Assembly: GCA_964386355.1 (NCBI GenBank)
Contig: CAYLQQ010000001.1
Location: forward strand, 12,256 to 76,255
Length of the DNA stretch: 64,000 nucleotides
Origin: an uncultured Pseudomonadales bacterium
GTDB lineage: Bacteria; Patescibacteriota; Microgenomatia; UBA1400; UBA1449
Direction: 5' to 3'
Made by a program: the position numbers and the translations under genes. Numbering within the stretch: position 1 is the first letter of the stretch; each line of letters begins with the position of its first letter. Positions 7,565-49,032 of the stretch are shown here, piece by piece. The notes beneath the pieces were generated by a model that was given only the letters and a program-made list of their open reading frames with translations, ran no database searches and had not been told where the DNA came from.

Positions 7565-7586
7565 AAAAAACCTCCTTGTAGAGGTA
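7565..7586 (-). terminator. hairpin (ACCTC/GAGGT) plus T6 on the minus strand, 38 nt upstream of the cysS ATG
   Basis: Minus strand reads ACCTCTACAAGGAGGTTTTTTGTAATT. It shares the TTTTTTGTAA tail seen at other intrinsic terminators in this window. Confidence 0.4.
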
Positions 7587-17635: not shown

Positions 17636-17662
17636 AGTTAAAATTATAATAAATGAGCTTAT

Positions 17663-18361: not shown

Positions 18362-18384
18362 AGATAATTTATGTTAAATAATGG

Positions 18385-18990: not shown

Positions 18991-19082
18991 GGGAATAGCT
19001 ATTTATCTGTCTAGATTAAAAAAGTCTCATCACCAATCTCCTAATACTATGTTTAAATACGCATCATTTAATTAGCTGCTAT

Positions 19083-24328: not shown

Positions 24329-24443
24329 CTCCCCTCCAAATTAGAGGTACATATTGTTAATATACCAAAAAGTATTAAACGTCCATTGATTATACTAAAA
24401 AGAGACAGAAGTTTGAAGTATGAATAATGAAGTGACGCAATTA

Positions 24444-30151: not shown

Positions 30152-31126
30152 TTGCTTGCAGATGCGAAAATACTTTATACTGTATATAGTATAAAAATAC
30201 AAAATCTGCCTATGTCACAAGATACTGCATTCACATTCAATAACAACCAAGGTGCTACTGTACAAGACATCACAATCCCCCCAGTCACCACACCTGTACC
30301 AAATACACCACTGCCTTCAGCTCCAGTAGGTTCAAACCAGCCAGTAATATCTTCTGTTATGGCTCCTCCTCCACCTCCTCAGACAATAATGACAGGAACT
30401 AATCAGGGTTTACCGAGCATATCAACTTTTGATTCATTTGACCCAAGTTCTAAAATACCCGTAGATGTACCTGCAACTGTCGTGAGTGAACCACAAAACA
30501 CTGTCGAACCTGAAACAACTGTATTACCAAGCTCAAACCAGAGTATGACTAGCCCTGTAAACATACCTATCCTAAATGCGGTTCCCACAGTACCTACTAC
30601 ACCTACACAACCTACATCGGATACAAACACAACCGCTACAGCTACTCCTGATTTTAGAGCACTAGCTGAAGAAATTGTCTCACACACTCCTGAACCACCA
30701 AACATACAAACGCAGGATAGTTCTATTCCACCGGAAATAAATGCTCTCCCTCAAACTCCACTCGCAAGCCCAGCAACTACACCGGTAGTAGATCCTCCTA
30801 CCCAAACCCCACCTCCACTTCCATCTACTGCCCCCGAACCGCAACTTGAAGCAGATCCATTTATACAAGAAGTTCATGAACAGGATGTAAAAGTTGAGCG
30901 TGATGCCCTAGAAACACTGATTAGCAGTAGCCGTATTGATCCGGAACTTAAAGAACACCTTAAAATAGAATTGTTGAAATTTAAAGAGATTGAGAACGAT
31001 ACGATCCCTCTTGGCCAGGATATAAATACAATTGCCGCTGAAGTCATGGCACCTGAAGCATCAGTAGAATCGCAAACACCCAATACTAATCCCATACAAA
31101 CGCTTCCACCCGAAATACCGATGTAA
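30152..31126 (+). CDS. proline/threonine-rich intrinsically disordered protein
   Basis: 324-aa ORF with more than 35% P/T/S/Q, no TM segment and no signal peptide recognised. Confidence 0.5.
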   Translation: MLADAKILYTVYSIKIQNLPMSQDTAFTFNNNQGATVQDITIPPVTTPVPNTPLPSAPVGSNQPVISSVMAPPPPPQTIMTGTNQGLPSISTFDSFDPSSKIPVDVPATVVSEPQNTVEPETTVLPSSNQSMTSPVNIPILNAVPTVPTTPTQPTSDTNTTATATPDFRALAEEIVSHTPEPPNIQTQDSSIPPEINALPQTPLASPATTPVVDPPTQTPPPLPSTAPEPQLEADPFIQEVHEQDVKVERDALETLISSSRIDPELKEHLKIELLKFKEIENDTIPLGQDINTIAAEVMAPEASVESQTPNTNPIQTLPPEIPM

Positions 31127-31135
31127 TTTTACCTT

Positions 31136-31456
31136 ATGGTGCATAGATATATATCATTGCCATGGAGCATCAGGCCAAAAATTAGAATAGTTTCCTATTA
31201 TTTAATTATTTTTCTAATATTTCTCATTGTTGGCATCATGATGCAGACAATGGCTCCCCCAAAGGTTTGGCTTGGCTCTCTCCCTTTACCCTTAGGCTTA
31301 GCTATTCAACATATAGAAGGAGTTTTTGTGATTCTCTTTGCAGTCTTGGGACTAGGTATTATGCTGTTTGTGAGCACAAAGCCAATCGTACAAATCCATT
31401 CTGATAAAATCTATATCTGCCGGCGCGTAAGCTCGAAATTCCATTTTCGGATTTAA
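31136..31456 (+). CDS. small membrane protein (2 predicted TM helices)
   Basis: 106 aa. The hydrophobic helices are IVSYYLIIFLIFLIVGIMM and VFVILFAVLGLGIMLFV. Confidence 0.4.
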   Translation: MVHRYISLPWSIRPKIRIVSYYLIIFLIFLIVGIMMQTMAPPKVWLGSLPLPLGLAIQHIEGVFVILFAVLGLGIMLFVSTKPIVQIHSDKIYICRRVSSKFHFRI

Positions 31457-31650
31457 AAGAAGTGCAAATTGCAGAAGATACATCGTTTAACATACATTGG
31501 CTCATGCTATATATGCACGATCCAAAAAAATATGCAGCCTAAGAAAAATTATCAAAAAACAACGATCTTAATGATGGTGCCGATCTGATTCTGGATTTTT
31601 CTCTGACTTCAAGACAGAACTGGCTGGCAGCATACGACTTGATTACAGAG

Positions 31651-31687
31651 TATATCAAAATAAAAAGGGCACATCAGTGATGTGCCC
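31651..31687 (-). terminator. rho-independent terminator of the rpsB-tsf operon
   Basis: Perfect 9-bp stem GGGCACATC/GATGTGCCC with a 3-nt loop, followed on the minus strand by TTTTTATTTT. Confidence 0.7.
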
Positions 31688-31709
31688 TAAAACTTCCAAT
31701 TCACAATTT

Positions 31710-32168
31710 CTATTCCCCTATCGCCATCCGGTGCATTTCCAGCACTACGATATTCTCACCCATCTTGGCTATAGCGGCTTTAACTAAATCCCCGATAGTC
31801 TGTTTGGGATCACGGATGTAAGCCTGTTCAAGAAGTTCTTCAATAGTCTGAGCATTCATGGAAGCTGTCTGCATAGCAATCTCTTTACACAAAGCCTGGT
31901 ATTCTTCAGTGTTAGCAACAAAATCAGTTTCACAACCGATTTTAACCAGAGCTCCCAATCTTCCATTATTATGAATGTAGGCATAAACTAAACCATCACC
32001 GGTTTGCCTATCAGCTTTTTTGGCTGCTTTTGCCAAACCCTGTTCTACCAGCCAAGCCTTAGCTTTTTCCATATCGCCTTTCGCTTCTTCCAAAGCTTTT
32101 TTTACTTCCATAACCCCGGCTTTGGTTTCTGCCCTGAGTTTTTTGATTTGATCCATTGAAATTGACAT
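31710..32168 (-). CDS. tsf: elongation factor Ts (short form)
   Basis: N-terminal UBA-like motif (IKKLRAETKAGVMEVKKALEEA) and the classic position immediately downstream of rpsB. Only 152 aa. Confidence 0.8.
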   Translation of the reverse strand: MSISMDQIKKLRAETKAGVMEVKKALEEAKGDMEKAKAWLVEQGLAKAAKKADRQTGDGLVYAYIHNNGRLGALVKIGCETDFVANTEEYQALCKEIAMQTASMNAQTIEELLEQAYIRDPKQTIGDLVKAAIAKMGENIVVLEMHRMAIGE

Positions 32169-35924: not shown

Positions 35925-36755
35925 CTATTTAAGTAGATTGTTGATCTGTTGGTTATAATTGATAACAACCTTACGAGATTCCTCAGCAAAGTTATCTCTA
36001 TCAGAAGCAAAAATTACACTTCTAGAAGCATTGACTATAAAATTACGTCCGCGCAATGCGCGCAAGTCATTAATATCACCCCCCTGAGCTCCTAAACCAG
36101 CTATAAGAAAAAACTGATCAGTTGGTGATAGGTCAATGACCCGTTTAAGTACTTTAGGATACGTTAATGGGCATTCGATTAGAATATTTCCTGTTTTGTT
36201 CCAGAAATTGCATACAAGCTTTGTAACGTGTTCATATAGAAAATCACCATTTTTCAAAACCACATCCTGAACTTCACCTGCAGAAGGATTAGAATCGTGG
36301 CATAGTACAAACGCAGCTTTACCCTCGCAATGTAAAAATGGTTCTAATGTATCAAACCCAAACCAAGGGGTAATGGTAAATGCGTCAAAAAGTAGTTCGT
36401 CAAAAAGCTCTCTAGCTACCAATTCAGCACTTCGTTTCATTTCACTTCTCTTGCAATCAGCGATGATTCTAATTTCAGGATAGTTCTTTTTGATATATTC
36501 ATTTGTCTTTTTGAGGGTTTTAATTCCTTCTATTCCGTAACCTGCATAAAACGAGTTATTCATTTTATATAATGAGGCAATATCTGCAGTGCTATCAATG
36601 ATAGCTTTATTGAATATAAACAGTGCTTTTCCAAGAGTATTGTTCTTTTTTACAATGTCCGGTAGTTTTTCATAATCAGAATCTAGCCCAACACAGATAT
36701 GGGATTTTTTAATACTTATTTGATCGGCTACATGTTTTACAAAAAGTGTATTCAT
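35925..36755 (-). CDS. pyrF: orotidine 5'-phosphate decarboxylase (type 2)
   Basis: ICVGLD, IIADCKR (catalytic Lys) and a C-terminal GLGAQGG phosphate-binding motif. Confidence 0.8.
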   Translation of the reverse strand: MNTLFVKHVADQISIKKSHICVGLDSDYEKLPDIVKKNNTLGKALFIFNKAIIDSTADIASLYKMNNSFYAGYGIEGIKTLKKTNEYIKKNYPEIRIIADCKRSEMKRSAELVARELFDELLFDAFTITPWFGFDTLEPFLHCEGKAAFVLCHDSNPSAGEVQDVVLKNGDFLYEHVTKLVCNFWNKTGNILIECPLTYPKVLKRVIDLSPTDQFFLIAGLGAQGGDINDLRALRGRNFIVNASRSVIFASDRDNFAEESRKVVINYNQQINNLLK

Positions 36756-36771
36756 ATTTAGACATTAATAC

Positions 36772-38013
36772 TTAATAATCTAAGTATCTTCCAGAGTCTT
36801 TTTTAGCTTGAATATCGGGCACTGCTTGAGGTGCTAATTTATCCAAATCAGCTTGAATTGGATACGTCCCAACTATTTCTACTCCATTTGCTTCAAAAGC
36901 TGCAAATTTTGTTCTATTATTAGATGCGACTCTCGCAGCTTTTAATCCAGTAATTTGCCTCACAACAGATACTAATTCGTAGGTACGTAAATCTCCTGGT
37001 AATCCCAACTCAGACTCGCGTGCCGTTAAGAGGTCTGTTACTCCACGACCAGTGTATTGTGTCTGGGCAAATTTAAGTGCTAAACCAAGATCCATTCCTT
37101 CTTCATCACCATATATTATCATGCCTGAACCATGTTCTTGAATATACCCCAATGTCTGCTGTAATTGGAAATGGCAATCACATCCATTACCACCTAGTTC
37201 AGCTGTAATACAAGCAGAGTGATATCTAACAACTGGAATAGTGTTGGCAATATCTCCCACACTAAATACGTAATGTCGCTTAGGTCTCTTGTTATAGTCT
37301 CGAATTTCCGATTTTACAGGCTCTTCAATTACTCTTAATCTCGCCGGATTACCACCACGAAACGTTACCGGTATATCGGCAGTGAGAATAAAGGGGCTAC
37401 CCTTCGAACCTCTATATATTTCCAACGCCCTTGGTGAAGCCAGTAATTTATTTCTTGTTGAGCAAGGTCCTGCAAGAAATGGAGAATTATATCTAATATC
37501 AGAAACACCCATGCCCCTTAAAATATCGCGCATCGTTTGAGGACTATCCACTGGGGGTGTAAATGTATCCAGAGAAACATACATTGCTGCAGTAGGGTCA
37601 GTATTGTATAGGCTTTGGATAGCAGTTTCTTTTCTATCTCCACAGCCACAATCTACATCGAAATATCCACCTGGACATAGAGTATCCATTTCAACTAATG
37701 CTTCATTTCGCAACTCAGCTTGAGAACCATGGCTGTAAACAATATGCCGCAATGCACCATAATCAGGGCTATAACTGCCCAATAAATGCATAGCTTCCAA
37801 TTCTCCAGGTTGTGAAGCAACCATTTGCTCACCTCTTGCTAAATAAACCACTGAAGAAGATACCTTCCCAATCAATTCATAGCCTGGAAGTCGAGCAAGA
37901 CCGCTCCGCTGAGCTAACAGTGCTCGTTCGTTAACAACTGCAGCATCTAACAGTCCATTCGGAAATGTTGGCCATTCATACCTACTACCAATATTACCTA
38001 ATCTTTCTGCCAT
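36772..38013 (-). CDS. two-domain protein: a novel 220-aa N-terminal domain plus a GTP cyclohydrolase II (RibA)-like C-terminal domain with a non-canonical motif
   Basis: VRYHSACITAELGGNGCDCHFQLQQTLGYIQEHGSGMIIY parallels RibA VRVHSECLTGD...CDCGFQL...G.GVLLY, with the zinc Cys triad pattern retained. The downstream GDEEGMDLGL replaces the RibA QEGRGIGL motif. Confidence 0.55.
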   Translation of the reverse strand: MAERLGNIGSRYEWPTFPNGLLDAAVVNERALLAQRSGLARLPGYELIGKVSSSVVYLARGEQMVASQPGELEAMHLLGSYSPDYGALRHIVYSHGSQAELRNEALVEMDTLCPGGYFDVDCGCGDRKETAIQSLYNTDPTAAMYVSLDTFTPPVDSPQTMRDILRGMGVSDIRYNSPFLAGPCSTRNKLLASPRALEIYRGSKGSPFILTADIPVTFRGGNPARLRVIEEPVKSEIRDYNKRPKRHYVFSVGDIANTIPVVRYHSACITAELGGNGCDCHFQLQQTLGYIQEHGSGMIIYGDEEGMDLGLALKFAQTQYTGRGVTDLLTARESELGLPGDLRTYELVSVVRQITGLKAARVASNNRTKFAAFEANGVEIVGTYPIQADLDKLAPQAVPDIQAKKDSGRYLDY

Positions 38014-38019
38014 ACTTAC

Positions 38020-38044
38020 AAAAAACCAACCTTTCGGTTGGTTT
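38020..38044 (-). promoter_or_regulatory. hairpin CCAACC-GAAA-GGTTGG, then U6, then GUAAGU-AUG, abutting the start codon of the RibA-like gene
   Basis: Perfect 6-bp stem (38026-38031 and 38036-38041) with a GNRA-type loop. The T run is 6 nt from the ATG at 38013 and there is no SD. Confidence 0.5.
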
Positions 38045-38215
38045 AATTTACATTGTTAATATATGCTTTCCCTATACATTGTATACGTGTATGTTGTGAA
38101 CGACTTATCTGATCGGAGATTGGGACAGTTTTTATCATAAAAAAACCAGTTGCATATGCACACTGGGATTGTAGTATAGCAAATGTATATTGGATGTGTC
38201 AAACAGAGGAGATGT

Positions 38216-39733
38216 TTATATGACAATAGAATATCTATCAAAACCAAGAGTCTTATACAATTGTTCAGATCTGCGCCGGTACCTTTCTGCTCCATCCAGA
38301 TCATCTATGTCGCAAATATTAGTAAGCCTATCATCCATGAGGTTTATCTTGTAACCACGCTCTCTGGCTATTTCAATGCCAGCAATAATACCTGTGTCTC
38401 CATTATTTGGTAATTGTAGCCATTTCCGTTTTACTTTGTCAGATAAACCAGCTGCAAGCAATTTACCCTTATTCTGCTGGGTTTCCTGCATCAGACCTCC
38501 TGAAATATAAACTTCATCTATATTTAAAGGCAGACGCATCGCAATATGTCGTCCAAGCCCACAATAGACTGCTGCAGTAACTTCAATTTTGGTTTGAATA
38601 TCGGCAGATGCAAGCTCACTCCAGCTATATGGTTTTCCGGATTCATCATATATTCCTCCTTTACATCCTGGAAACATATCTTCGGGAATAAAAAAGAAGC
38701 GATTATTTGCAAGATTTACTACGCCTTCTCCAGCCCATTCGTCAATCTTAGCAAACCAATCATTAGGGTCTTTAAACGAATGTAATTCTTTTGTCCAAAG
38801 TGGAAATAAAATATCTGTATTTACACTAGCGCCATTTATTTTCTTGTGCTTGCCATAAACATTATAATCTGGGAAAAATGCTCGTGCATAATCATTTGTA
38901 CCATAGTAAGCAAGCTTACATATTGTATCTGCTTCGATATATACTGCCCGTTCAACCTCAAGACCGCTTGAGATAATCTCATGCTCTGCCATGACTTTCA
39001 TTTGATAGTCTCCTGCTCCTCTAGCAGTTTTGCCATTTGGCAGTTGAAGGACTCGGTGCTGCCTCATGTCATATTGATGAGGAAGTAACCCCATAGCCTC
39101 CATTACTTTTGGTAATATGTTATGTGCTACATCCCATCCATAATCTCCACCAATCCATGGTTTCCATTCATGTTCATGGAAGCCATATCTCAGTCCAGTT
39201 GCAAGACGAATATAAGCTGATATCGCTGGTTCAACATATAAATCACCAACAGTAAGCTTTGGAATACCACTCTCAGCAGCAAACTTATCTAAGTTAGATA
39301 TAACCGTAGCAAAGCGAAGAAGTGGGTTTGTTTTATCTTTCCAATCGTATACTACACCAAGTGGCTTGAGTCTCTCTTTAATATCTGGGCTGATCTTGAC
39401 CGGAAATACAGTTTTTGTTGTTAATCCAATCAAGGGTAGTCCGTATGAATCTGATATGATTAACTGCCTACGATAAGAACCGGTTACTCCAATATCTACA
39501 CCATATGCATCTCTAAGCCAAGGGACAATACTTTCAAAATTAATTGCAGCCACATCTCTATTCCACATATTAACTTTATTCCTAAATCCAGGTATTCTCT
39601 GCCTGCTGCCAACTGCCGTAACCCATTCAGCAGAATAAAAATCCAATTCGTCATCAAAGTTTACATAGCCTGCTGAACGACGATAATTTGTTGAACCAAC
39701 ATCAATAGTTCTAATAATATCTGGACTTACCAT
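38216..39733 (-). CDS. hypothetical protein, possibly an actin-fold (ASKHA) ATPase/kinase
   Basis: N-terminal IDVGSTNYR (phosphate-1-like DxGxT) and C-terminal VYISGGL / GDTGIIAG (adenosine-like and phosphate-2-like). This is pattern resemblance only. Confidence 0.35.
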   Translation of the reverse strand: MVSPDIIRTIDVGSTNYRRSAGYVNFDDELDFYSAEWVTAVGSRQRIPGFRNKVNMWNRDVAAINFESIVPWLRDAYGVDIGVTGSYRRQLIISDSYGLPLIGLTTKTVFPVKISPDIKERLKPLGVVYDWKDKTNPLLRFATVISNLDKFAAESGIPKLTVGDLYVEPAISAYIRLATGLRYGFHEHEWKPWIGGDYGWDVAHNILPKVMEAMGLLPHQYDMRQHRVLQLPNGKTARGAGDYQMKVMAEHEIISSGLEVERAVYIEADTICKLAYYGTNDYARAFFPDYNVYGKHKKINGASVNTDILFPLWTKELHSFKDPNDWFAKIDEWAGEGVVNLANNRFFFIPEDMFPGCKGGIYDESGKPYSWSELASADIQTKIEVTAAVYCGLGRHIAMRLPLNIDEVYISGGLMQETQQNKGKLLAAGLSDKVKRKWLQLPNNGDTGIIAGIEIARERGYKINLMDDRLTNICDIDDLDGAERYRRRSEQLYKTLGFDRYSIVI

Positions 39734-39758
39734 AAAAAAACCAACCCTATGGTTGGTA
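39734..39758 (-). promoter_or_regulatory. hairpin CCAACC-AUAG-GGUUGG, then U7, directly abutting the AUG of the ASKHA-like gene
   Basis: Same stem sequence as the element at 38020-38044. The T7 run is immediately followed by the ATG at 39733, with no SD. Confidence 0.5.
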
Positions 39759-39844
39759 TAAAATAAATAAGCAAAGAAGATTACAACCCAGCCATATTCC
39801 GGATTTGGATTGTATAAAGATGAAATAGAAGTGTCAATGATAGA

Positions 39845-40618
39845 TTATAGGCTTATGATCCCATTCAAAAGCTTCTTCATTTTTTCACTTTGAGCTTGAG
39901 CATTGGTTACCACATCTGTATGGTCATGTTTGACAAACGCGAGGTTAGTTACACATGACAGGCCTAGCACTTGTAATCCCAAACTGTTTGCCATGATCGT
40001 CTCAGGTACGGTGCTCATCCCGACACAGTCAGCTCCCAATTCAGCCAAAGCGCGCTTGTCTGCAAAACTCTCATAGTGGGGTCCGCGGACATACGCGTAT
40101 ATACCTTGCTGATATCTAATACTGTATTGTTTGTTTACCTCAATTGCTCTATTTTTCAATTCCGTATCAAATGGTTGAGACAGGTCTACAAAATGTGCTC
40201 CCTGAATCGGACTTTGGCAAAAAAGAGTGAGAATATCGTCTAAAATAACAATATCTCCCACCTGATATTCACCGTTTAAGCCGCCTGATGCAGAAGTTAT
40301 AACTACCTGTTTAACCCCTAATTGTGCGAATGCCTGAATAGGTCGGGTAACTTCCTCACTCGTATATCCTTCATAGGTGTGAAATCTTCCCGCCATGATC
40401 CAGACTGGCTTCCCTGTGAGTCTACCCAAAATAAGCTCCCCTTTGTGTCCAGCTACACCTGAGCCCTTGCCAAACATTTCATCAAACCCGAAGCGTTTTT
40501 CTACTTCCATATCTTGAACTACATCATTCCATCCAGAACCGAGAATCATGAGAGTTTCTGATCGATCGTCGAAAGAATGTAAGTTATGGATGATTTGTTC
40601 GACAGCTTGTATTGACAT
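39845..40618 (-). CDS. purine nucleoside phosphorylase (PNP/MTAP family)
   Basis: ILGSGWN...GHKGELILGRL.GKPVWIMAGRFHTYEGY...GMSTVPE matches the PNP family-2 consensus. A good SD (GGGAGGTAGGAG) is present. Confidence 0.8.
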   Translation of the reverse strand: MSIQAVEQIIHNLHSFDDRSETLMILGSGWNDVVQDMEVEKRFGFDEMFGKGSGVAGHKGELILGRLTGKPVWIMAGRFHTYEGYTSEEVTRPIQAFAQLGVKQVVITSASGGLNGEYQVGDIVILDDILTLFCQSPIQGAHFVDLSQPFDTELKNRAIEVNKQYSIRYQQGIYAYVRGPHYESFADKRALAELGADCVGMSTVPETIMANSLGLQVLGLSCVTNLAFVKHDHTDVVTNAQAQSEKMKKLLNGIISL

Positions 40619-40654
40619 TATGACTCCTACCTCCCGCTTTCAGACTACCCCTGT

Positions 40655-41260
40655 CTAGAGGGAATTTATTACAAAATATTCGACTGCTTGCCTATCAAAG
40701 CCAAAGCTGATAAATCGCTCTTTGATCTGCTCATCTCCCACACCTTCGCCTTTCCATTTAGGAGTTAGCTGGTGAATTGTTTCTCTAACCTCATAGGGAA
40801 ACACAATCCAGTCACTTGTTTGTATGCCATAGTAATCCGGTTTTATCTTTGAGTGAGGTTTATAAAAAACCGTAGCAGTTTTGATGTGCTCAATTCCTTT
40901 AGCATGCAAGTAGTCTTTTACAAACAACAGTGACTCTCCTGTATCAGCCACGTCATCAAACAGAAGTATATTTTCGCCATTGATATCAACAGGTAACTGC
41001 TGATAGATGATAGGTTTTTCGCAGCGCTCATTCACTCCGCAGTAAAACTTGACCCCGATGCTGGCAACTTCTTTTACACCCAAAAGGTCAACGAGGGAAC
41101 GTGTCATCGGCCAACCACCCTTGGCAAGCGTAACAATACGATCTATCTTGATTCCGTCTGCCTGTATCTGTTTTGCAACCTCAAATATAAACTGCTGGAG
41201 CTGGTCCCAGGATGGAGTCAGATAGCTAATACCGTTGTGAGATGAGTTGGTCGGGTGCAT
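40655..41260 (-). CDS. purine phosphoribosyltransferase, xanthine-guanine PRT (Gpt)-like
   Basis: PRPP-binding motif ILLFDDVADTGESL and the Gpt-like C-terminal WIVFPYE. Confidence 0.75.
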   Translation of the reverse strand: MHPTNSSHNGISYLTPSWDQLQQFIFEVAKQIQADGIKIDRIVTLAKGGWPMTRSLVDLLGVKEVASIGVKFYCGVNERCEKPIIYQQLPVDINGENILLFDDVADTGESLLFVKDYLHAKGIEHIKTATVFYKPHSKIKPDYYGIQTSDWIVFPYEVRETIHQLTPKWKGEGVGDEQIKERFISFGFDRQAVEYFVINSL

Positions 41261-41329
41261 GGCAGGTAAAAAAGTATGTTATGGAGAATTATCATAGGAG
41301 AAAATGAAGAGTTGTGCAAAGGGGAAAAG

Positions 41330-43531
41330 CTAATCGCCACCCTGACGCTTGGCAAAATTGTATGCAGCAGTTACGTAACCACGAGGTCGCGCTGATTTAT
41401 AGGGTGCAGTTAACGAGACAATTTCATCCCATAATATTTTCGAAGCTCTAGAATCAGCTGCTCTTGTATATACATCTTCTGGCAATCCTTTAGGTACATA
41501 CAGCCTACCATTTTTTATGATTAGCATAATCATTTGCTCAGGTGCTTGAAAAGCCAATCGGACTAACGCATTCTTAGCTCCCTCATCTAGTATTCGCAGC
41601 CACGCCCGCGGACCAATACCCCCAGCAATAGGTAGATAGTCATCTTGCCAATAGTTAGCTTGAGATGCATCCATCATTCTGGCTAAAACCATTCCATTAG
41701 ATACAGTCCAATTTCCTATTTGGGGATTAGTTACATCTGGGGCTTTTTTAACATCCTCTGGAGCATAGCCAACAGTGTCTCTAGCATATTTCTTGATTAT
41801 AGATCCTAAATCATTCAGCAACTCATCGCGCGCGCGACCAATCAAACCTAAATGATCAGCTAATGATTCAATAGTATTTCCACCAGCTTGCTCGTTTACC
41901 ATCTGCCTCATATCTCTCCAATCTAATCCTAATTTTTCCCAATATGATTCCCAATCAACATGCAACGGGTTCCACGTAACTACTTGTAGTTGCCTTAATG
42001 CATGGTGTCTACTAGCTGTTTGTTCATCTAGTATCCTAAGCACTAATTGCTTATATAACATTTGTTTATACGGATCTGGTTCAAGCCGATCAATATCTTG
42101 GGTGAGCATACCTAATCTCTCCTCTGGATTTGTAAGTAATCTTACTATGCTTACTGGTATTTGACGCTCAGTGTTGGGATTTTTAGTACCGGTGATTAGA
42201 AAATCTAGAGCTGCACCCCAGGAATCTACATCATGTAAAAAGACATGCATTTGCTTGTCTTGACAGGTATAGGCAATTTCAACTGATAAGCTTCCAAGCA
42301 AACCAGGATCAGCAGCCAAAAACCCTGCCCATAAACGCTCAATTGCCTGTCCTTCTGCTTTAAGTGCTTGTGCAACTGTAAATATAGTTAGCTCTTCTAT
42401 ATCCTGCCTTTCAAGTACTTGATCAATATTCACATCTTCCCAATCTCTAATAACCAGATTACCTGTTGAGTCAAAAACAAAATCTAGGTTTACCTCTTTA
42501 TATGGGGTTCTTGCATGAGCATTGCTTTCTTTTTCACCCTGAACAACGCGATTTGGTTTATCCCCATATACCACAGCTGCTTTGACTTTGAATACTGTCT
42601 GACCTTTTTGGTCGACAATATCTTGCAGCTCAAACCTCATGTTTCCCCCAAGGGTAGATGCCACTGCTTCACTGGCAAAGCCTTTCAGTGCGGTTAGCTC
42701 ATCAGATTTGTGCAGCACAAATACGTTCATGTGATATCCTGGATTACGTCTGATAATTTGCTCTGCCATTTTTTCTAAATATTCTTTTTGTAAGCTTGGT
42801 AAGATTTCAAAACCTGGCAGTGAGCTGCTAAATTCATCCCCTTCTCTGGGGCATAACCTGACATATAACCCATGGCCTTTTTGTGACTCCTCCTCAAAAA
42901 ACCCAGCTAAATTAGCAATTTCTCCTGTTACGGTTTCATAAATTTCTCCTCGCACTCTTGCCCCTGAAACACTTCTAATTGTCTCGCCTTGTTCTGTCAG
43001 AGCATCATTAGTTGCTATTACATCATTAATAACGTAATCAAGAAGCGGATCATGAGTTTGGGCGACAGTTCTCACGAGCCCTCGCTTAAGTACTTTAACG
43101 TGCAGATTAGGACTTTCTGGTGAGGGTAAATGGAGAAGCTCCCTAACCCTTGTCAATAACTCTTTTGGTCTGTTTAAGAGAGGGCCTTTTCTGGGATCTC
43201 TTACATCTATACTTGCTGGAGATGCAAATACAGTGTCAGGCTGTTCATCATCCAAGCTGACTTGCACACCTGCATTAGCCGGCATATCCGTATCTTCATA
43301 TATAGTAGTTTGTTTTCCTGAACCATTCCTACCATCTCCTCTGCCATCAGAAAAACTACCAACTACTGCTACATCGGAGGATGAATTATTACCAGAATAA
43401 ACATAGCGGGGTTCACCGCCAGACTCTCCAATGCAAACTAAAACAGCTTGATCAGGAGCAATTTGTAGATCAGCTCCCTCTTGTCCACTTGAAATAACAA
43501 CTTGTTCGGATACACGCTCTTGATGAGCCAT
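41330..43531 (-). CDS. large hypothetical protein (733 aa) with a G/S/D-rich N-terminal segment
   Basis: Long ORF with no recognisable catalytic motif. Its own extended -10 promoter and a palindromic operator-like site lie upstream. Confidence 0.5.
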   Translation of the reverse strand: MAHQERVSEQVVISSGQEGADLQIAPDQAVLVCIGESGGEPRYVYSGNNSSSDVAVVGSFSDGRGDGRNGSGKQTTIYEDTDMPANAGVQVSLDDEQPDTVFASPASIDVRDPRKGPLLNRPKELLTRVRELLHLPSPESPNLHVKVLKRGLVRTVAQTHDPLLDYVINDVIATNDALTEQGETIRSVSGARVRGEIYETVTGEIANLAGFFEEESQKGHGLYVRLCPREGDEFSSSLPGFEILPSLQKEYLEKMAEQIIRRNPGYHMNVFVLHKSDELTALKGFASEAVASTLGGNMRFELQDIVDQKGQTVFKVKAAVVYGDKPNRVVQGEKESNAHARTPYKEVNLDFVFDSTGNLVIRDWEDVNIDQVLERQDIEELTIFTVAQALKAEGQAIERLWAGFLAADPGLLGSLSVEIAYTCQDKQMHVFLHDVDSWGAALDFLITGTKNPNTERQIPVSIVRLLTNPEERLGMLTQDIDRLEPDPYKQMLYKQLVLRILDEQTASRHHALRQLQVVTWNPLHVDWESYWEKLGLDWRDMRQMVNEQAGGNTIESLADHLGLIGRARDELLNDLGSIIKKYARDTVGYAPEDVKKAPDVTNPQIGNWTVSNGMVLARMMDASQANYWQDDYLPIAGGIGPRAWLRILDEGAKNALVRLAFQAPEQMIMLIIKNGRLYVPKGLPEDVYTRAADSRASKILWDEIVSLTAPYKSARPRGYVTAAYNFAKRQGGD

Positions 43532-43536
43532 AAAAT

Positions 43537-43550
43537 AGAATTTAAATTCT
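43537..43550. promoter_or_regulatory. perfect 14-bp palindrome AGAATTTAAATTCT, 5 nt upstream of the 733-aa gene start codon
   Basis: Exact inverted repeat lying between the putative extended -10 (TGTATAAT on the minus strand, 43601-43608) and the ATG at 43531. Confidence 0.4.
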
Positions 43551-43600
43551 GTGCGTACTTTATCAAAAAGTGTGTGAGAATTACGTTAAATTATTGAAGT

Positions 43601-43608
43601 ATTATACA
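43601..43608 (-). promoter_or_regulatory. putative extended -10 promoter element (TGTATAAT) internal to the island
   Basis: The TGn-TATAAT match reads on the minus strand about 70 nt upstream of the 733-aa gene ATG. No properly spaced -35. Confidence 0.3.
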
Positions 43609-43650
43609 TCTGCTTGTCAAATGAAGCAAAATATTAGAAACACACATAGT

Positions 43651-44379
43651 TTATGTTATCAATTTTCTTCTTTTTATTTCTTTAAGTCTTCGAAGGGAAC
43701 CCATCATCTCTTGAAAGTCTTGCTGAACCAACTCTCTTGCAGTCGCATTTTGTCTTAAAGTAGGTTTTATAGCCATTAACACCTCTGGTCCTGATTCATC
43801 TGGATATAATGGTGCTGTATCAAGACCTACTTTTATACAGGCGTCATAAAATTCATTCATTGGTTGTTCATTAAATCTATTTGGTTCAAACTGATTACGA
43901 AATACTGCTTTAAGAACTCCTCCTGGTGTTAATTTTCTGAATATAGTTTCTATTGCTCTTCTAGGTAATGTACTATACCCCAAAGAATGAACAGCTAAAA
44001 AACAACCTACAGAATTATCATCGTATGGATCTAACGATTCTACTGATGTTATATCTATATTTTCTCTTCCGAAAAACTGTTCATGTTCAGGTATATGAGT
44101 AAGTGCAGTTGCTCTGAATTGTAGACTATGACCTTCATAGGCTTGCGAAAGATCACTTATACCTTCTGATGTTCCACAACCAATATCTACTACTAATTTA
44201 TGCGGAAGTTGTGCAATATACCCAATGGTTGAATCTAGACCCAATAACACCGTAACATACGCACTACCATCTCTATCAACAGTATAAGATTCCTCAGGGT
44301 TATCTAATTCAAGAGCTACCGCTCTAGTTGTTTGTTGAAGTACCATTTCTCTTTCTTGTGGTAATAAGACCATAATCAA
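43651..44379 (-). CDS. class I SAM-dependent methyltransferase-like protein
   Basis: Motif I VVDIGCGTSEG and the spacing to downstream acidic and hydrophobic motifs are consistent with a Rossmann-fold MTase. Substrate unknown. Confidence 0.5.
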   Translation of the reverse strand: MIMVLLPQEREMVLQQTTRAVALELDNPEESYTVDRDGSAYVTVLLGLDSTIGYIAQLPHKLVVDIGCGTSEGISDLSQAYEGHSLQFRATALTHIPEHEQFFGRENIDITSVESLDPYDDNSVGCFLAVHSLGYSTLPRRAIETIFRKLTPGGVLKAVFRNQFEPNRFNEQPMNEFYDACIKVGLDTAPLYPDESGPEVLMAIKPTLRQNATARELVQQDFQEMMGSLRRLKEIKRRKLIT

Positions 44380-44409
44380 TAATTATACAGTATAATCCTA
44401 TATTATTTT

Positions 44410-45720
44410 TCAATTTCTCTTTTTTCTTTTATGTTCAGCAACTCCTGTTGCTCTTTTAAACATTAATTGTAATCTATTAGCTAAACTTTCTTCCAGATCA
44501 TCTACATCGTCTCCAACAAAATCCGTATTAGCAAAACGCTGTACGACACAAGAGCCTCTTTTCTTAACGTCATAGTCAAGCTTATCTAGAGCAGCTTTGA
44601 TTACCCAATATCTATGTGGTGCCGACCCGAGCACGGCCATGTCTTTCATAAACATATATGCAGCATTTGCGGGATCTGCAGCCAAAAGATTATCCACAAG
44701 TAGAATATGTCTGCGTGCAATTGGATGCTCTGATTCAAACCCTCCGTTCGCAAAAGGGTTTATTTCCATTGATAAAATTTCTTCTGGTAACAACGGTGTC
44801 ATGAGAAGTTGGTGTCTTGTTCGAAATACAACTCCCTTAACAGGAGTATCCTCTTCAATAGGCCATATAACCCTTTTATTTGAACCATTCTTTTTGGGCT
44901 TTGATTTTTCTAGAGCAGGATCATATTCGGGCATTCTAAATAAACAGACAGCTTCACCGAAGTTTATATGAACCTCAAATAATGAAGTTGGATCTCTAAA
45001 AAGAGTTGAAAATAATAGTAGTTGTCTAGTTTTTGTCTCTTCTTTGCTTTCGCCTTCTTTAGGTTTATGAAGAGCGGTTATTTGACCTGTTAAAGGATCT
45101 TTGACTGTGACTATTACATCTCCACCTAAAGATAATACATATGGCGATCCAGGTGTATCAGCTACAATACCTGCTCTTTCATCTTGTAAGTTCCTAATAA
45201 GAGCTCGAATGTCCGTGCATCCCTGCATATCCCTAGCTTTAGAATATGCTACTACACCGGCGGCGGCATCAAAGTGATTCAATTCTGCACCCGGTTTACA
45301 TTTAGATCCTGCCACAAATACTCCCGGCGCTAAATAACCCATACCTGCAATTGTGTTTACCACCTTACTTGATTCTCTTTCTGAACGAGCTAGGACTGCT
45401 GCAACCTGGTTTCCTTGTAGTCTTTCACGAACCTGCTCCATCTCAGTACGTACCTTTGGGTCTTTCATTATATGTTCGAGAAAACCAGGTATACCTCGCG
45501 TAACTTCTCTTTTGAATTCATCTAAATCAAAATGTACTATGGGATGCATATCAATCATCTTTATATATGGATCAACTTTTTCTCTAATATACCTAGCTAG
45601 ATCTTTTTCAGGAGATGAACATTGTGCACCGTCAACTTGGGTATGACCGTTTCTATTCTCCCCGAACGCTACAGGTACTGAGTTGCATTGTAATAATGAT
45701 CGTAAGTCAACAGGTAACAT
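44410..45720 (-). CDS. hypothetical protein (436 aa)
   Basis: Long ORF with a basic C-terminal tail (HKRKKRN). No family recognised. Confidence 0.5.
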   Translation of the reverse strand: MLPVDLRSLLQCNSVPVAFGENRNGHTQVDGAQCSSPEKDLARYIREKVDPYIKMIDMHPIVHFDLDEFKREVTRGIPGFLEHIMKDPKVRTEMEQVRERLQGNQVAAVLARSERESSKVVNTIAGMGYLAPGVFVAGSKCKPGAELNHFDAAAGVVAYSKARDMQGCTDIRALIRNLQDERAGIVADTPGSPYVLSLGGDVIVTVKDPLTGQITALHKPKEGESKEETKTRQLLLFSTLFRDPTSLFEVHINFGEAVCLFRMPEYDPALEKSKPKKNGSNKRVIWPIEEDTPVKGVVFRTRHQLLMTPLLPEEILSMEINPFANGGFESEHPIARRHILLVDNLLAADPANAAYMFMKDMAVLGSAPHRYWVIKAALDKLDYDVKKRGSCVVQRFANTDFVGDDVDDLEESLANRLQLMFKRATGVAEHKRKKRN

Positions 45721-45725
45721 ATTAC

Positions 45726-45752
45726 AAAAAACCGCCCTAAAAGAGCGGTTTA
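45726..45752 (-). promoter_or_regulatory. hairpin AACCGC, 9-nt loop, GCGGUU, then U-run, then GUAAU-AUG, abutting the start of the 436-aa gene
   Basis: Stems at 45730-45735 and 45745-45750. The T run is 5 nt from the ATG at 45720. No SD. Confidence 0.45.
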
Positions 45753-45869
45753 TTAATACACAGTATATATGTTTGGTAACATTGTTTGCCAGCCATATGG
45801 TATTGTCTGATACGGCTGAGCCTATGTCAAGCAGAGCTTAGGCTTATAATAACTATCATTCTATAATGT

Positions 45870-46625
45870 TTATTTCTGTTTCATGCCTTGAGCTGTATAT
45901 TGTTCCAACGCCTCTACCGCAGGCTTTCCGCCACTAAATATCACTTTGTACAAGAGGAAAGGATCAGGCTTAATCCTATCTACTAGTGTTACCGGCGTCA
46001 TTGAACCATCTGGTAGCAGGTGAGTGGTACATATCTCCATACTTCCCCTTGTTGATGTAAGTAATTCCCAACCGATATCAGTTATAGGTAATGATCCAGC
46101 AACCTCGAGCACATAACCAGTGTGATCCACTAGACGTTTTGCATCAGCATGGGGAAAGGCATGTAGCTGAGTTTCAATAATTGTTACATCTGTTGTTGGT
46201 CTAAAACCGTTGCGACCAAAATAGGTAGTGGCAGCACAGTCATATACGGTAGTGTCATTATGTGTCAATAATGCCAGTTGTTCTAAAGCTCTTTCTGGTG
46301 TTCCGGGTTTTTCCAATGTTACCCATCGGCCATTAATTAAAACTACCCTCACTGTATCTGCAGTCTGAAATACGCATTCTTCTCCTCCCGCCTCTTTTGA
46401 AGTCAGAATTTGTTTTGCGGCAGTAGCTTTTGCATCTGACATCCATGCTACATACTGAGCTGGGTCGGCAGGCCTGCGAGCTAGTACGTCTTTTCTGATC
46501 CCATATTCATCAAACACGCCTTCGGGTGAAACTGGGGCAAGATGCAAACCAACAGCCCTTGCTTTCCATCCTGCAATAGCAAGCCGATGATGGGCAGATG
46601 TTACTGGAGAGAATTCTTTAAACAT
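45870..46625 (-). CDS. hypothetical protein (251 aa)
   Basis: A/R/G/T-rich ORF with no recognisable motif. Confidence 0.5.
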   Translation of the reverse strand: MFKEFSPVTSAHHRLAIAGWKARAVGLHLAPVSPEGVFDEYGIRKDVLARRPADPAQYVAWMSDAKATAAKQILTSKEAGGEECVFQTADTVRVVLINGRWVTLEKPGTPERALEQLALLTHNDTTVYDCAATTYFGRNGFRPTTDVTIIETQLHAFPHADAKRLVDHTGYVLEVAGSLPITDIGWELLTSTRGSMEICTTHLLPDGSMTPVTLVDRIKPDPFLLYKVIFSGGKPAVEALEQYTAQGMKQK

Positions 46626-46627
46626 AC

Positions 46628-46654
46628 AAAAAACCCGCCTTGAACGTGCGGGTT
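46628..46654 (-). promoter_or_regulatory. hairpin CCCGC, 9-nt loop, GCGGG, then U6, then GU-AUG, abutting the start of the 251-aa gene; a classic intrinsic-terminator shape
   Basis: Stems at 46634-46638 and 46648-46652. T6 is followed by GT and the ATG at 46625. It lies 75 nt downstream of the Gmk-like gene stop. Confidence 0.5.
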
Positions 46655-46728
46655 AGAAATACAATTTTGACTTAAGTTTATAACGCGGTGGATACATGAC
46701 TCATTATGCCTAATGAGTAACTGATACG

Positions 46729-47541
46729 TCAAGTATAAAATTGTTGAGGTATAGCTTCCAAACCGGGACGCACACCTGTATAGCTTGGCATACGAGCAAG
46801 TTCGTTGCGGATAATGTGACAAAACTGAGCTGCTACCACAGGCAACTGACCATCTACATTAAGAAGTACAAACTTTGACAAAGTAACTCCTCTCATATCT
46901 TCATCAATTTTCCTTAAGCGATCTCTCACTTGTTCAGGGGAAGATCCTGGACGATTACGTAAACGGTTCTCTAAAACTTCCTTTGATTCTGGCATAACAA
47001 AAATTGGAACTATTGCTGTATTTCTTAGTATTTGGTTACCTTGCCATAGTTCCAGTACACGCTGTGCTCCATCATGTTCAACCCGCAACACAGAAATTCC
47101 ATTATGTCTTTCTACTCGCTCTAATTCAGTAAAACTTGTACCCTTAAAATCATCAACTCCATAAGGTATATGTTCAACAAATTTGTGATTTACTATCATT
47201 TGTCCAAATGTTTCCTTATTAACAAAATGGTAATGTACCCCGTCAATCTCGCCCGGCCTTGTTTTACGCGTTGTATGAGTGACAATCCGTTGCAACAATC
47301 CTCGTGACTCAAGTTGTTCGAGAATCCCATCTTTTCCGGCTCCTGATAATCCCATGAGAATAACCATTAATGAATGGGCGAAAGTTAATCGCTCTGGAGT
47401 ATTAAGTTCACTACTTGAAACTCTATATACATACGGTATCTCAAAAGATAAACCCACTCCTTGGTCTTCAACTTGCATTTCATACCAGGTTTGAAACTGA
47501 GTAATAACGTTTGGTACTCTTGGTACTCTTTCTTGAGACAT
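46729..47541 (-). CDS. guanylate kinase-like P-loop kinase with a 60-aa N-terminal extension
   Basis: ILMGLSGAGKDG (P-loop), then RIVTHTTRKTRPGEIDGVHYHFV...HIPYGVDDFKGTS, parallels Gmk (SGPSGAGK...TTR.PRPGE.DG.DY.FV...Y.GT). Confidence 0.6.
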   Translation of the reverse strand: MSQERVPRVPNVITQFQTWYEMQVEDQGVGLSFEIPYVYRVSSSELNTPERLTFAHSLMVILMGLSGAGKDGILEQLESRGLLQRIVTHTTRKTRPGEIDGVHYHFVNKETFGQMIVNHKFVEHIPYGVDDFKGTSFTELERVERHNGISVLRVEHDGAQRVLELWQGNQILRNTAIVPIFVMPESKEVLENRLRNRPGSSPEQVRDRLRKIDEDMRGVTLSKFVLLNVDGQLPVVAAQFCHIIRNELARMPSYTGVRPGLEAIPQQFYT

Positions 47542-47595: not shown

Positions 47596-49032
47596 TTAGA
47601 GTAAGCCTTTTTGTTTGATCTGTTTTATTATCTGTTGATGAACTTCTTCGATAGTCTTTGAAGCATCTACGACAATCCAACGTCCGTGGTCGTTACGCTT
47701 TGCTAGTTTAAGGTAACCGGCACGTACTTTGTCGTGAAAATCTTTTTGTTCCAGATCCAAACGATTCATCACTTCGGAAGCACTCCTTCGAGCTAGACCT
47801 AGCTCTGACTTAATATCCAAAAGCATCGTCAGATCAGGATACAGGTTTTGTGTGGAAATATTATTCAGCTGTTCAATCAGGTCTTCTCCAAAGCCCCGTA
47901 CTATTCCTTGATAGACTACGGATGAGTCTCTTGTGCGGTCACACAAAACCACCTTACCTGTTTCTAGAGCTGGAATGATCAACTCCTGATAAATCTGTGC
48001 CCGAGCTGCCTGGAATAACAAAACTTCAGTCCCAAATGCCATACCAGTATTTTTTGTATGTAAGACAATTTCTCTGATTTGCTCAGAAATTGCCGTACCC
48101 CCTGGTTCTCTGGTGATAAGTACTTCTTTGCCTGTTTTGATTAACAAATCTGCCAATAGTTTTATCTGGACTGTTTTACCAGCCCCTTCTCCACCTTCAA
48201 ACGATATAAGAAGGCCTTTTTTATTAATTTTCTTTTGAGCAACATGATGTAAACCATTGATAGATGAAAAGTGGTGTTTTTCGCATTTGGGGAAATAGTT
48301 ATATGACACTTTACCAACCAGCATGAGCGCGTCAGAGTTAAACGATGCCGGCTTATCATCCAGATTAAGCTGGGTAAAGATAGCCGGATTCTGACATTGA
48401 GGTTCGCTACAGCGGGCAGAAAGCACCAGCATCAGGTCAGCGTGGCCAAATAAGGCTCTGTTGTTTTCCCATTGAATCCGTTTATATGAAAAATCAAGTC
48501 CGGCAATAACTAAAGTTATTCTTTTTTCATTAATAATTTTTATTAAAGATCGAAACTCGGAAGCATCAACCTTAGCTCTATCACAAAAGTGCCATTCATC
48601 AATTAACACAACTGTCCCTGGCTTGACATCGTGTAAATAAGTTTCTAGATCACTGAGGTCTTTATACACTTGAGCCGGGTATTCCTTACCGGAGCCCCAT
48701 GATTTTATGACAGCCTTATCACTCGTACGCTGCATATCCTTCTGATGTGTAAAGGCTTGTATACGTAATTTTTTTACTGAGGAAAGTAGTAGTAACAGGG
48801 CAGTTTTTCCCGATCCCATAGGCCCACAAATACCGATAATTCCCCCGTTTGGATGAGCCTCTATATAGTCGATTATCCGTTTAAGTGCCGGGAAGTGGTG
48901 TTGGTTATAGCCTTTCTGTTTACTTTCAGATGGGTCAGAATACCAGTAGGCTTTGCTTTTTCCAACTGTAAGTGTGGAAACAGGGTACGGAATAAGATCT
49001 TTGTTCTGGTCATTTACAGCTATTTCAGACAT
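47596..49032 (-). CDS. bifunctional fusion: N-terminal thymidine kinase-like domain plus C-terminal thymidylate kinase domain
   Basis: TK-like: GICGPMGSGKT, VLIDEWHFC, AGLDFSYKR, and a zinc ribbon CSEPQC...PKCEKHH. TMPK: LISFEGGEGAGKT, ITREPGGT, LLFQAARAQIY...VLCDRTRDSSVVYQG. Confidence 0.75.
   Translation of the reverse strand: MSEIAVNDQNKDLIPYPVSTLTVGKSKAYWYSDPSESKQKGYNQHHFPALKRIIDYIEAHPNGGIIGICGPMGSGKTALLLLLSSVKKLRIQAFTHQKDMQRTSDKAVIKSWGSGKEYPAQVYKDLSDLETYLHDVKPGTVVLIDEWHFCDRAKVDASEFRSLIKIINEKRITLVIAGLDFSYKRIQWENNRALFGHADLMLVLSARCSEPQCQNPAIFTQLNLDDKPASFNSDALMLVGKVSYNYFPKCEKHHFSSINGLHHVAQKKINKKGLLISFEGGEGAGKTVQIKLLADLLIKTGKEVLITREPGGTAISEQIREIVLHTKNTGMAFGTEVLLFQAARAQIYQELIIPALETGKVVLCDRTRDSSVVYQGIVRGFGEDLIEQLNNISTQNLYPDLTMLLDIKSELGLARRSASEVMNRLDLEQKDFHDKVRAGYLKLAKRNDHGRWIVVDASKTIEEVHQQIIKQIKQKGLL

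Follow-up and report, generated by a model that had tools for sequence, protein, structure and literature searches.

Ribosome-coupled attenuation is classically known from genes of nucleotide metabolism, namely pyrBI and pyrE of Escherichia coli, where an intrinsic terminator lies just 5' of the structural gene and is read through when a ribosome on the leader open reading frame (ORF; in pyrBI) or at the end of the upstream ORF (in pyrE) reaches the hairpin. In these systems both the leader ORF and the structural gene carry Shine-Dalgarno (SD) sequences, a spacer separates the terminator from the start codon, and UTP-sensitive pausing provides the signal. The subject of the present analysis is a set of four terminator-shaped hairpins, here numbered sites 1–4, each of which runs through its U-tract almost or quite directly into the start codon of a gene; they lie within one cluster, itself nucleotide-metabolism-like, in a 64,000-nucleotide (nt) stretch of contig CAYLQQ010000001.1 from an uncultured bacterium (this whole stretch is called the window below). 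In their logic they come closest to pyrBI and pyrE; however, at sites 1–4 U-tract and AUG are fused and SDs are lacking, and two of the leader ORFs look leaderless. The reading preferred here, to which a probability of roughly 45% may be given, is a composite one: the four hairpins would be translation-gated attenuators in 5' leaders, combined with SD-independent initiation on the U-tract. It draws on one genome, with the signals read from sequence.

Other described systems resemble the cluster in part. The E. coli gene rnd (encoding RNase D) has, as do sites 1–4, a terminator-shaped GC hairpin and U-run 5' of its start, the leader reading GACGCCGG-TTAA-TCCGGCGT, a T8 run (of which the first T is the final T of the stem), 24 nt and a TTG start codon. 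In work by Zhang and Deutscher in 1992 the rnd hairpin with its U8 is said to have acted as a translational enhancer, the U-run being needed for translation. The list of mRNAs with A/U-rich translational enhancers given in one review includes rnd. However, in rnd the 24 nt between U-run and start contain an SD-like AAAGAG, the case is a single one, and the upstream gene fadD has the hairpin as its terminator, whereas in the cluster the spacing is 0–6 nt, there are four or five cases together, and each has a dedicated putative promoter 5' of it. In mycobacteria, genes downstream of a leaderless short ORF that forms the first cistron are controlled via the position of the ribosome; control is exerted on translation, through exposure of a ribosome-binding site, and cysteine is sensed via poly-Cys codons (bioRxiv 10.1101/834739; PMC4633059); in the cluster, by contrast, the target would be a terminator hairpin, and the ORFs have no sensory codon run. 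Riboswitch, T-box and PyrR-type systems likewise place promoter, leader and terminator before metabolic genes, and may be repeated in one cluster, but the leaders considered here are only about 45 nt long, with no Rfam match, no shared motif and no predicted antiterminator. Neither pyrBI and pyrE nor rnd nor the mycobacterial ORFs are known to show fusion of U-tract and start, absence of SDs, or four to five copies per cluster; set beside these systems, what appears to be new is the attenuator-like leader with its U-tract fused to the start codon, while the attenuation logic itself is known.

Hairpins abutting start codons

Coordinates refer throughout to the whole window, and all four sites lie on the minus strand. 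Read in that direction, each consists of a GC-rich stem, a loop, the returning stem, a run of six or seven T and then an ATG, reached after 6, 0, 5 and 2 nt at sites 1–4 respectively; all four were found where an earlier note on this DNA, made from the sequence, had placed them. The fold predictions proposed in that note gave the values listed below, in which dG is the folding energy in kcal/mol and the z-scores derive from dinucleotide shuffles.

38020..38044, minus strand: site 1 hairpin, AAACCAACC-GAAA-GGTTGGTTT, then T6, GTAAGT and ATG 38013; dG -12.5, z -4.1
39734..39758, minus strand: site 2 hairpin, ACCAACC-ATAG-GGTTGGT, then T7 and, without spacer, ATG 39733; dG -9.8, z -3.1
45726..45752, minus strand: site 3 hairpin, AAACCGCTCT-TTT-AGGGCGGTTT, then T6, GTAAT and ATG 45720; dG -13.4, z -4.9
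46628..46654, minus strand: site 4 hairpin, AACCCGC-ACGTTCAAG-GCGGGTT with a 9-nt loop, then T6, GT and ATG 46625; dG -11.9, z -3.3
38139..38166, minus strand: fifth hairpin, in the site 1 spacer, CCAGTGTGCATATGCAACTGG and T7, then directly ATG 38138; dG -9.2, z -2.4
7565..7585, minus strand: comparison element, the hairpin upstream of cysS, with T6 and a TTTTTTGTAA tail, then an extended -10 box (TGtTAATAT), 6 nt and ATG 7534

An intrinsic terminator is expected to have a GC-rich stem of at least 5 base pairs and a short loop; sites 1–4 have GC-rich stems of 7–10 base pairs, with loops of 3–4 nt (9 nt at site 4), and their T-runs (T6, T7, T6 and T6) are uninterrupted and begin in every case at the end of the stem. 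With this canonical anatomy, and with folding energies of -9.8 to -13.4 that are far better than those of shuffled sequences, the four sites are terminator-shaped and would be expected to terminate transcription. The fifth hairpin lies 49 nt past the stop codon of the 505-residue gene, and its ATG (38138) is the start of a 31-codon ORF. Sites 1 and 2 have the stem CCAACC-N4-GGTTGG in common with the differing loops (GAAA and AUAG) reported previously, and a search of the window for this motif found it there only, each copy adjoining a start codon. The tail TTTTTTGTAA, of which there are four copies in 64 kb, each directly 3' of a hairpin, looks like part of the usual terminator of this genome; it is indeed present at the cysS-upstream hairpin, as had been claimed, but the spacer there is 30 nt after the T-run and not 38 nt.

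In order to judge how unusual the fusion to ATG is, every T-run of at least five in the window was put through an energy-based scan, and intergenic elements with a hairpin and T-run on the coding strand and dG of -7 or lower were kept. Ten elements remained, of which five have an ATG at 0–6 nt, and all five of these are inside the cluster (sites 1–4 and 38139-38166); the five outside it, i.e. the 3' terminators of tsf and ybeY, two elements near 13.2–13.4 kb and the cysS-upstream hairpin, do not abut an ATG in any case. Fusion is thus seen in 5/5 elements within the cluster as against 0/5 outside (Fisher p = 0.008; binomial 0.0025 against about 0.11 per site), and is more than chance. The distance from the upstream stop codon to the hairpin is 74–171 nt at sites 1–4 and 49 nt for the fifth hairpin, while the tsf and ybeY terminators lie 0–22 nt past their stops. 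Because sites 1–4 are this far from the upstream stop but only 0–6 nt from the next ATG, they belong by position to the downstream gene.

The genes that follow the four sites are these:

36772..38013, minus strand: 413-residue gene (site 1), residues 243–390 of which form a GTP cyclohydrolase II-like domain that scores below family cut-offs
38216..39733, minus strand: 505-residue orphan gene (site 2), with IDVGSTN at residues 10–16
44410..45720, minus strand: 436-residue orphan gene (site 3)
45870..46625, minus strand: 251-residue Maf-like gene (site 4), with a match to the Maf profile

Each fused ATG is the earliest possible start of its ORF, the next in-frame ATG being 55–64 codons further on. 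The possibility raised previously that the true starts lie further downstream is excluded at site 4, where residue 51 of the gene product corresponds to position 36 of the Maf profile; later candidate starts can be set aside there because the domain begins near residue 15. At site 2 the position of IDVGSTN so close to the N-terminus likewise argues for the fused ATG, although the assignment of this protein to the ASKHA class is not confirmed, while for sites 1 and 3 the fused starts are proposed on ORF logic alone.

Promoter-like sites, short ORFs and initiation

In each of the four spacers a promoter-like site precedes the hairpin:

38173..38202, minus strand: site 1, TTGACA-18-TATACT, 11/12 match, TG-extended; the predicted transcription start is the first base of the fifth hairpin
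39809..39837, minus strand: site 2, TTGACA-17-TACAAT, 11/12 match; 50 nt lie between the end of the -10 box and the hairpin
45802..45830, minus strand: site 3, TTGACA-17-GACAAT, 10/12 match; past the end of the -10 box come the ATG of a short ORF after 5 nt and the hairpin after 49 nt
46703..46732, minus strand: site 4, TTGACG-18-CATAAT, 10/12 match; past the end of the -10 box come the ATG of a short ORF after 5 nt and the hairpin after 48 nt

Within the region these four are the top matches. Only nine matches of at least 10/12 were found in 19 kb, counting both strands, and four of the nine fall inside the 565 nt that make up the spacers of sites 1–4. The arrangement of the pyrBI/pyrE type, with a promoter 5' of the terminator, is accordingly present at 4/4 sites in the form of putative promoters that match the consensus at 10–11 of 12 positions. 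Between hairpin and ATG there is at none of the sites 1–4 either room for a promoter or a match to one; the idea of a promoter concealed in the U-tract and spacer, which would make the main genes leaderless, was ruled out, the stretch from -12 to -7 being TTTTTT. Since a putative promoter lies 5' of each hairpin and none lies 3' of it, the genes could be expressed only by read-through. Neighbours in the cluster that lack a hairpin have a -10 box 7–9 nt before the ATG, and at cysS the order is terminator, extended -10 box (TGtTAATAT), 6 nt and ATG. What is unusual about sites 1–4 is the order promoter, leader, terminator and ATG, not the absence of an SD. Judged by position, the hairpins are probably leader attenuators, with expression requiring read-through.

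The 227-nt spacer upstream of cysS (7535-7761) contains a promoter-like TTTGCA-15-TATACT of its own, and also an 18-codon ORF (ATG 7600) that passes through the terminator hairpin; its stop codon falls within the -10 box of cysS. The design of the cluster may recur here in a related, looser form.

Short ORFs occur in all four leaders:

38043..38138, minus strand: site 1, 31 codons, MIKTVPISDQISRSQHTRIQCIGKAYINNVN; it begins after the fifth hairpin and T7, and its TAA stop (38045-38043) reaches into the 5' arm of the site 1 hairpin
39781..39797, minus strand: site 2, 4 codons, ATG GCT GGG TTG TAA; it ends 23 nt before the hairpin, and its ATG is 13 nt after the -10 hexamer
45737..45796, minus strand: site 3, 19 codons, MAGKQCYQTYILCINKPLF; its TAG is in the hairpin loop, and its ATG is 5 nt after the -10 box (GACAAT)
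46653..46697, minus strand: site 4, 14 codons, MYPPRYKLKSKLYF; the hairpin begins within its TAA, and its ATG is 5 nt after the -10 box (CATAAT)

At three of the four sites (1, 3 and 4) the short ORF therefore ends on or in the hairpin, and the main AUG follows 29, 16 and 27 nt past its stop, respectively. From shuffled sequences the chance of such an ORF is 0.11, 0.21, 0.36 and 0.07 at sites 1–4, corresponding to a hand-calculated probability of about 0.016 for three or more out of four. As to whether the short ORF stands at the very 5' end of the transcript, the -10 box and its ATG are 5 nt apart at sites 3 and 4 and 13 nt apart at site 2, while at site 1 the ATG lies behind a hairpin and U7. 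A strongly U-rich stretch before the hairpin is present at site 2 only. The leader ORFs of sites 2 and 3 both begin MAG, and the 10-mer ATATGGCTGG occurs in both of these leaders (39781-39797 and 45787-45798), with a third copy in rseP at 28436.

The significance of the stop positions lies in a rule established in E. coli, where a terminator a few base pairs past a translated stop codon works with an efficiency below 10%, and the distance has to exceed some 27–30 nt for efficiency to be full (about 0.9) (PMC4824070). If the same rule were to apply here, ribosomes ending the upstream genes would leave the hairpins undisturbed, because they are 74–171 nt away, while ribosomes ending the short ORFs would abolish termination, because the stop is at 0 nt or less from the hairpin.

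No canonically spaced SD is present at sites 1–4, where only U6–7 and 0–6 nt separate stem from ATG and the nearest purine motif ends 11–16 nt upstream, within the stem. This bears out what the earlier note had said, and lends support to its suggestion that initiation is SD-independent. However, the further claim that the arrangement stands out against canonical SDs elsewhere has to be reversed: SD-less starts are the norm, and the cited genes (the one starting at 22880 and PNP), though their SDs are real, are exceptional. The survey behind this statement took the starts of the longest ORFs and then every candidate start within the first 80 codons, since longest-ORF starts can hide SDs. With the former, SD-like motifs are all but absent from the genes of the window; with the latter, strong SDs emerge only at the gene starting at 22880 (AAGGAGG, 5 nt, ATG), at rpsB (AAAGGAGG before codon 14; ATG 32970) and at PNP (ATG 40618). 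A fourth is added by rpsU, encoding bS21 (Pfam PF01165, 34 bits; 24107-24337, minus strand), which has its ATG at 24316 and an extended SD, GGAGGGGAGGTG, at 24337-24326; gene and SD are both kept in the only relative found, the metagenome-assembled genome (MAG) contig L004 (about 7900-8260). Being small, rpsU falls below the default ORF cut-off. In all, strong SDs were seen at some 4–5 genes of the 64 kb.

Base composition gives a similar picture. G is depleted at positions -1 to -15 of starts (0.03–0.19, against 0.18 overall), AGGAGG occurs in the window at chance frequency (25 observed, 25.3 expected), T is the commonest base at -1 (62%), and the start-site profile has T at -13 and A at -12. 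A -10-like hexamer matching at least 5/6 lies 5–10 nt before the ATG in 10 genes, where about three would be expected; proS, for instance, has TGaTAAAAT and 7 nt before its ATG, and cysS has TGtTAATAT and 6 nt. Such a pattern suggests that leaderless or near-leaderless mRNAs are frequent in this genome; its ribosomes can probably read SDs, but few genes make use of one. In lacking an SD, the four genes follow the norm of the genome and are not peculiar. In Bacteroidia, translation is SD-blind, the anti-SD being sequestered, with a strong SD on rpsU as an exception (PMC9976891, PMC7797042), and the window is similar in being SD-poor and yet having an rpsU with an extended SD. The promoters in the window are, however, of the TTGACA/TATAAT type, and rpsB, PNP and the 22880 gene also have a strong SD.

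Proposed translation-gated attenuation and its alternatives

The events envisaged under translation-gated attenuation are as follows. A sigma-70-type promoter 5' of the hairpin would fire, and the short ORF would be translated as a leaderless one (at sites 3 and 4 from a 5'-terminal AUG). By default most transcription would end as a leader RNA of 65–70 nt, and the hairpin would stop transcripts arriving from the upstream gene as well as leaders that are not translated. At sites 1, 3 and 4, a ribosome at the stop of the short ORF would block folding of the hairpin as the polymerase reaches the U-tract, so permitting read-through. The main AUG, 16–29 nt further on, would then be used without an SD, either through re-initiation by the terminating ribosome or through fresh binding to the unstructured, U-rich stretch; because the genome rarely uses SDs, nothing needs to fit between U-tract and AUG. 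Hairpins, U-tracts, fused ATGs, promoter-like sites with their spacing, short ORFs and the scarcity of SDs can be read directly from the window; that terminators and promoters are active, that the short ORFs are translated, that ribosomes pass on to the main AUG and that a physiological signal governs the process is inferred. A more specific version, in which promoter, leaderless short ORF, terminator and AUG make up a dedicated module whose ribosome loads at the 5'-terminal AUG, cancels termination and is handed straight to the fused main AUG, seems rather unlikely in its full form. Were it true, the module would insulate its gene, tie transcription to translation capacity and take the place of a ribosome-binding site. 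If translation-gated attenuation in its general form is right, an SD-sparing bacterium would have tight gene-by-gene control, with an efficient terminator in the leader, read-through decided by translation of a tiny upstream ORF, and the terminator U-tract reused as the landing site for the next initiation. The ribosome-coupled attenuation of pyrBI and pyrE would extend to a leaderless, SD-free setting, and the four sites, at about 100 nt each, would be compact natural systems in which to study how termination, re-initiation and SD-independent start choice interact.

A number of points weigh against translation-gated attenuation. Attenuation alone leaves the distance of 6 nt or less between ATG and U-tract unexplained. 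The short-ORF statistics are modest and, having been computed after the pattern was seen, no more than suggestive, and gating by ribosomes fits 3/4 sites, since the ORF at site 2 has only 4 codons and a stop 23 nt before the hairpin. To rescue site 2 a 1-nt change is needed (with one G fewer in the GGG, the ORF would have 15 codons and stop at the TAG of the loop, 39748-39746); decay of a leader ORF, an assembly error or coincidence could each account for this. The peptides contain no regulatory or sensory codon runs such as those of mycobacterial and trp-type leaders. Nor is the antiterminator of trp-type systems predicted, the terminator dominating all low-energy folds with no competing helix. 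Beyond the promoter hexamers the leaders have no common motif, ATATGGCTGG linking sites 2 and 3 only. For leaderless mRNAs, the indication is a moderate enrichment of -10-like hexamers. Lastly, the proteins of the island appear to be orphans with no related locus found, so that conservation and covariation lend no comparative support. Two familiar kinds of leader control were considered and rejected: a riboswitch or T-box leader, as no aptamer of an Rfam family was matched (a scan of the whole window gave nothing at gathering thresholds, and a sensitive scan only a chance-level rli52, E = 4.8), and PyrR-type control, as the phosphoribosyltransferase (PRTase) of the cluster scores as HGPRT/XPRT-like and not as PyrR.

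The alternative that has to be taken most seriously, though it is on the whole somewhat unlikely, is that the hairpins are plain constitutive terminators serving as insulators, with the hexamers and short ORFs incidental, expression leaky and low, and no spacer needed in so SD-poor a genome. The same hairpin and TTTTTTGTAA design does serve at cysS and elsewhere as an ordinary terminator, SD-less starts are the rule in the window, and both the modest short-ORF statistics and the want of a fitting short ORF at site 2 would be natural. However, ordinary 3' terminators in the window lie 0–22 nt past stops, not 74–171 nt past them and against the next ATG; promoter matches of 10–11/12 stand 5' of the hairpin in 4/4 spacers, at constant spacing in three; fusion to ATG separates the cluster from its surroundings (5/5 against 0/5); and genes that lack a promoter and follow an efficient terminator would hardly be expressed. 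If this alternative were nevertheless correct, the arrangement would be a mere curiosity of gene packing in an SD-poor genome. The tight spacing of 0–6 nt would be best explained by RNA processing, in which an endonuclease would cut in the U-rich or AU-rich stretch 3' of the hairpin, leaving a protected upstream RNA and a downstream mRNA with a leader of 0–6 nt that is leaderless-like. Such a scheme would fit the -10 boxes 5–9 nt before starts, which point to common leaderless translation, and the U-tract is predicted to be single-stranded beside a stable stem; but no cleavage motif or nuclease is tied to the sites, the fixed-distance promoters and the short ORFs ending at the hairpin are neither needed nor explained, and the polymerase must first pass a terminator-shaped signal. 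It is accordingly regarded as improbable, and of the two roles suggested in the earlier note, processing or attenuation, it is attenuation that fits the anatomy, while for processing nothing specific was found.

There is a similarly slight chance that the promoter-to-terminator units are genes in their own right, for small RNAs of 65–70 nt and/or proteins of 14, 19 and 31 residues. A strong promoter with a strong terminator about 45 nt behind it is what a small-RNA gene normally looks like, and the short ORFs are intact at three sites; as against this, there is no Rfam match, the units share only the terminator in sequence or structure, and neither the fusion to ATG nor transcription of the next gene is explained. 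It must also be said that this idea is compatible with attenuation, since attenuator leaders can double as small RNAs. Control of translation by masking, with the G-rich 3' arms (AAAGG, TAGGG, TTAGGG and CAAGG) acting as SDs hidden in the hairpin, is very improbable. Their pairing energies of -4.1, -6.7, -7.2 and -7.4 kcal/mol, calculated with an E. coli-type anti-SD, look respectable given that only 6% of control positions reach -6, but any G-rich 3' arm scores in this way (for example the cysS-upstream terminator, with AAGGAGG 30 nt from the ATG), the purine motif ends 11–16 nt before the AUG and so beyond the usual 5–9 nt, and the genome hardly uses SDs. Scarcely credible, finally, is the notion of DNA-level operators, i.e. 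inverted repeats bound by a dimeric regulator: two sites do have the perfect palindrome CCAACC-N4-GGTTGG, but the stems of the remaining sites are unrelated, T6–7 follows every stem although an operator has no need of it, and there is no overlap with the promoters. Predicted accessibility is not decisive among these readings, the start regions being in the lower quartile, with the AUG open at sites 1 and 2 and partly paired at sites 3 and 4.

The gene cluster and the lineage

From 51190 down to 35925, the cluster comprises genes for a TK-TMPK fusion, a guanylate-kinase-like protein, the Maf-like protein, a methyltransferase, an HGPRT-like PRTase, PNP, a RibA-like protein and pyrF, and it also holds orphans of 310, 436, 733 and 505 residues; within it, only pyrF and PNP pass curated cut-offs. 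The GC content at third codon positions (GC3) is low from the guanylate-kinase-like gene to pyrF (35925-47541), at 0.17–0.31 compared with 0.33–0.43 for housekeeping genes, which makes "island" a fair description of this block. There are exceptions within it, namely the PRTase gene (0.45) and PNP (0.38, and with a strong SD), and the cluster looks mosaic. PADLOC found no defence system in the window, and there was no megablast match to phage records that would indicate a phage origin; the window is part of a cellular genome, as is evident from its housekeeping genes (cysS, dnaX, recR, ybeY, proS, rseP, frr, tsf, rpsB, thyA, an RNR gene, topA, dprA and a PBP gene).

Searches with the proteins of the cluster returned very little. 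Those of 505 and 436 residues match only themselves among 5.8 billion clusters, and an exhaustive HMMER search with the latter gave a single weak match. For the 733-residue protein no informative homologue was found in Pfam, NCBIfam, PADLOC or genome contigs, and for this protein, the 413-residue protein and the TK-TMPK fusion no related loci were found in genome or metagenome contigs. A single-sequence AlphaFold prediction for the 505-residue protein, with a pLDDT (predicted local distance difference test) score of 31.6, is unusable, and sequence searches of the PDB were uninformative, so that the label "ASKHA-like" would have the motif IDVGSTN as its sole basis and is not confirmed.

The window is contained in a 78-kb metagenome contig (Logan SRR11845627) and again in an NCBI contig of 151 kb; five of the loci met in the searches are this same contig. 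The ribosomal protein S2 of the window is 78% identical to that of L004 and at most 51% identical to all else. To gammaproteobacterial sequences the identity is 46%, as against 44–51% to those of Bacteroidota, Acidobacteriota and Gemmatimonadota, which leaves the "Pseudomonadales" label of L004 doubtful. To judge by these comparisons the lineage is very divergent and its placement uncertain. L004, as the sole relative, spans the region from rpsB to rpsU and not the cluster, and no hairpin-ATG fusion was found in it.

A few further features of the window may be recorded. The protein encoded by tsf has only 152 residues (154 in L004), and a strong terminator lies downstream of the gene (window 30152-32168; L004 1087-2507). 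In the gap between tsf and frr, the usual place of pyrH, there is instead an ORF of 324 residues on the opposite strand, which has no Pfam match and is kept in L004. Genes for the salvage of nucleosides and nucleotides are unusually plentiful in the window (17057-20051 and 47596-49032); among them are genes for a second TK-like protein, a nucleoside 2-deoxyribosyltransferase-like protein, a PfkB-family kinase, the TK-TMPK fusion and an IMPDH-like protein, together with thyA, DHFR and RNR. Taken at face value, this gene content suggests a lifestyle dependent on nucleoside scavenging.

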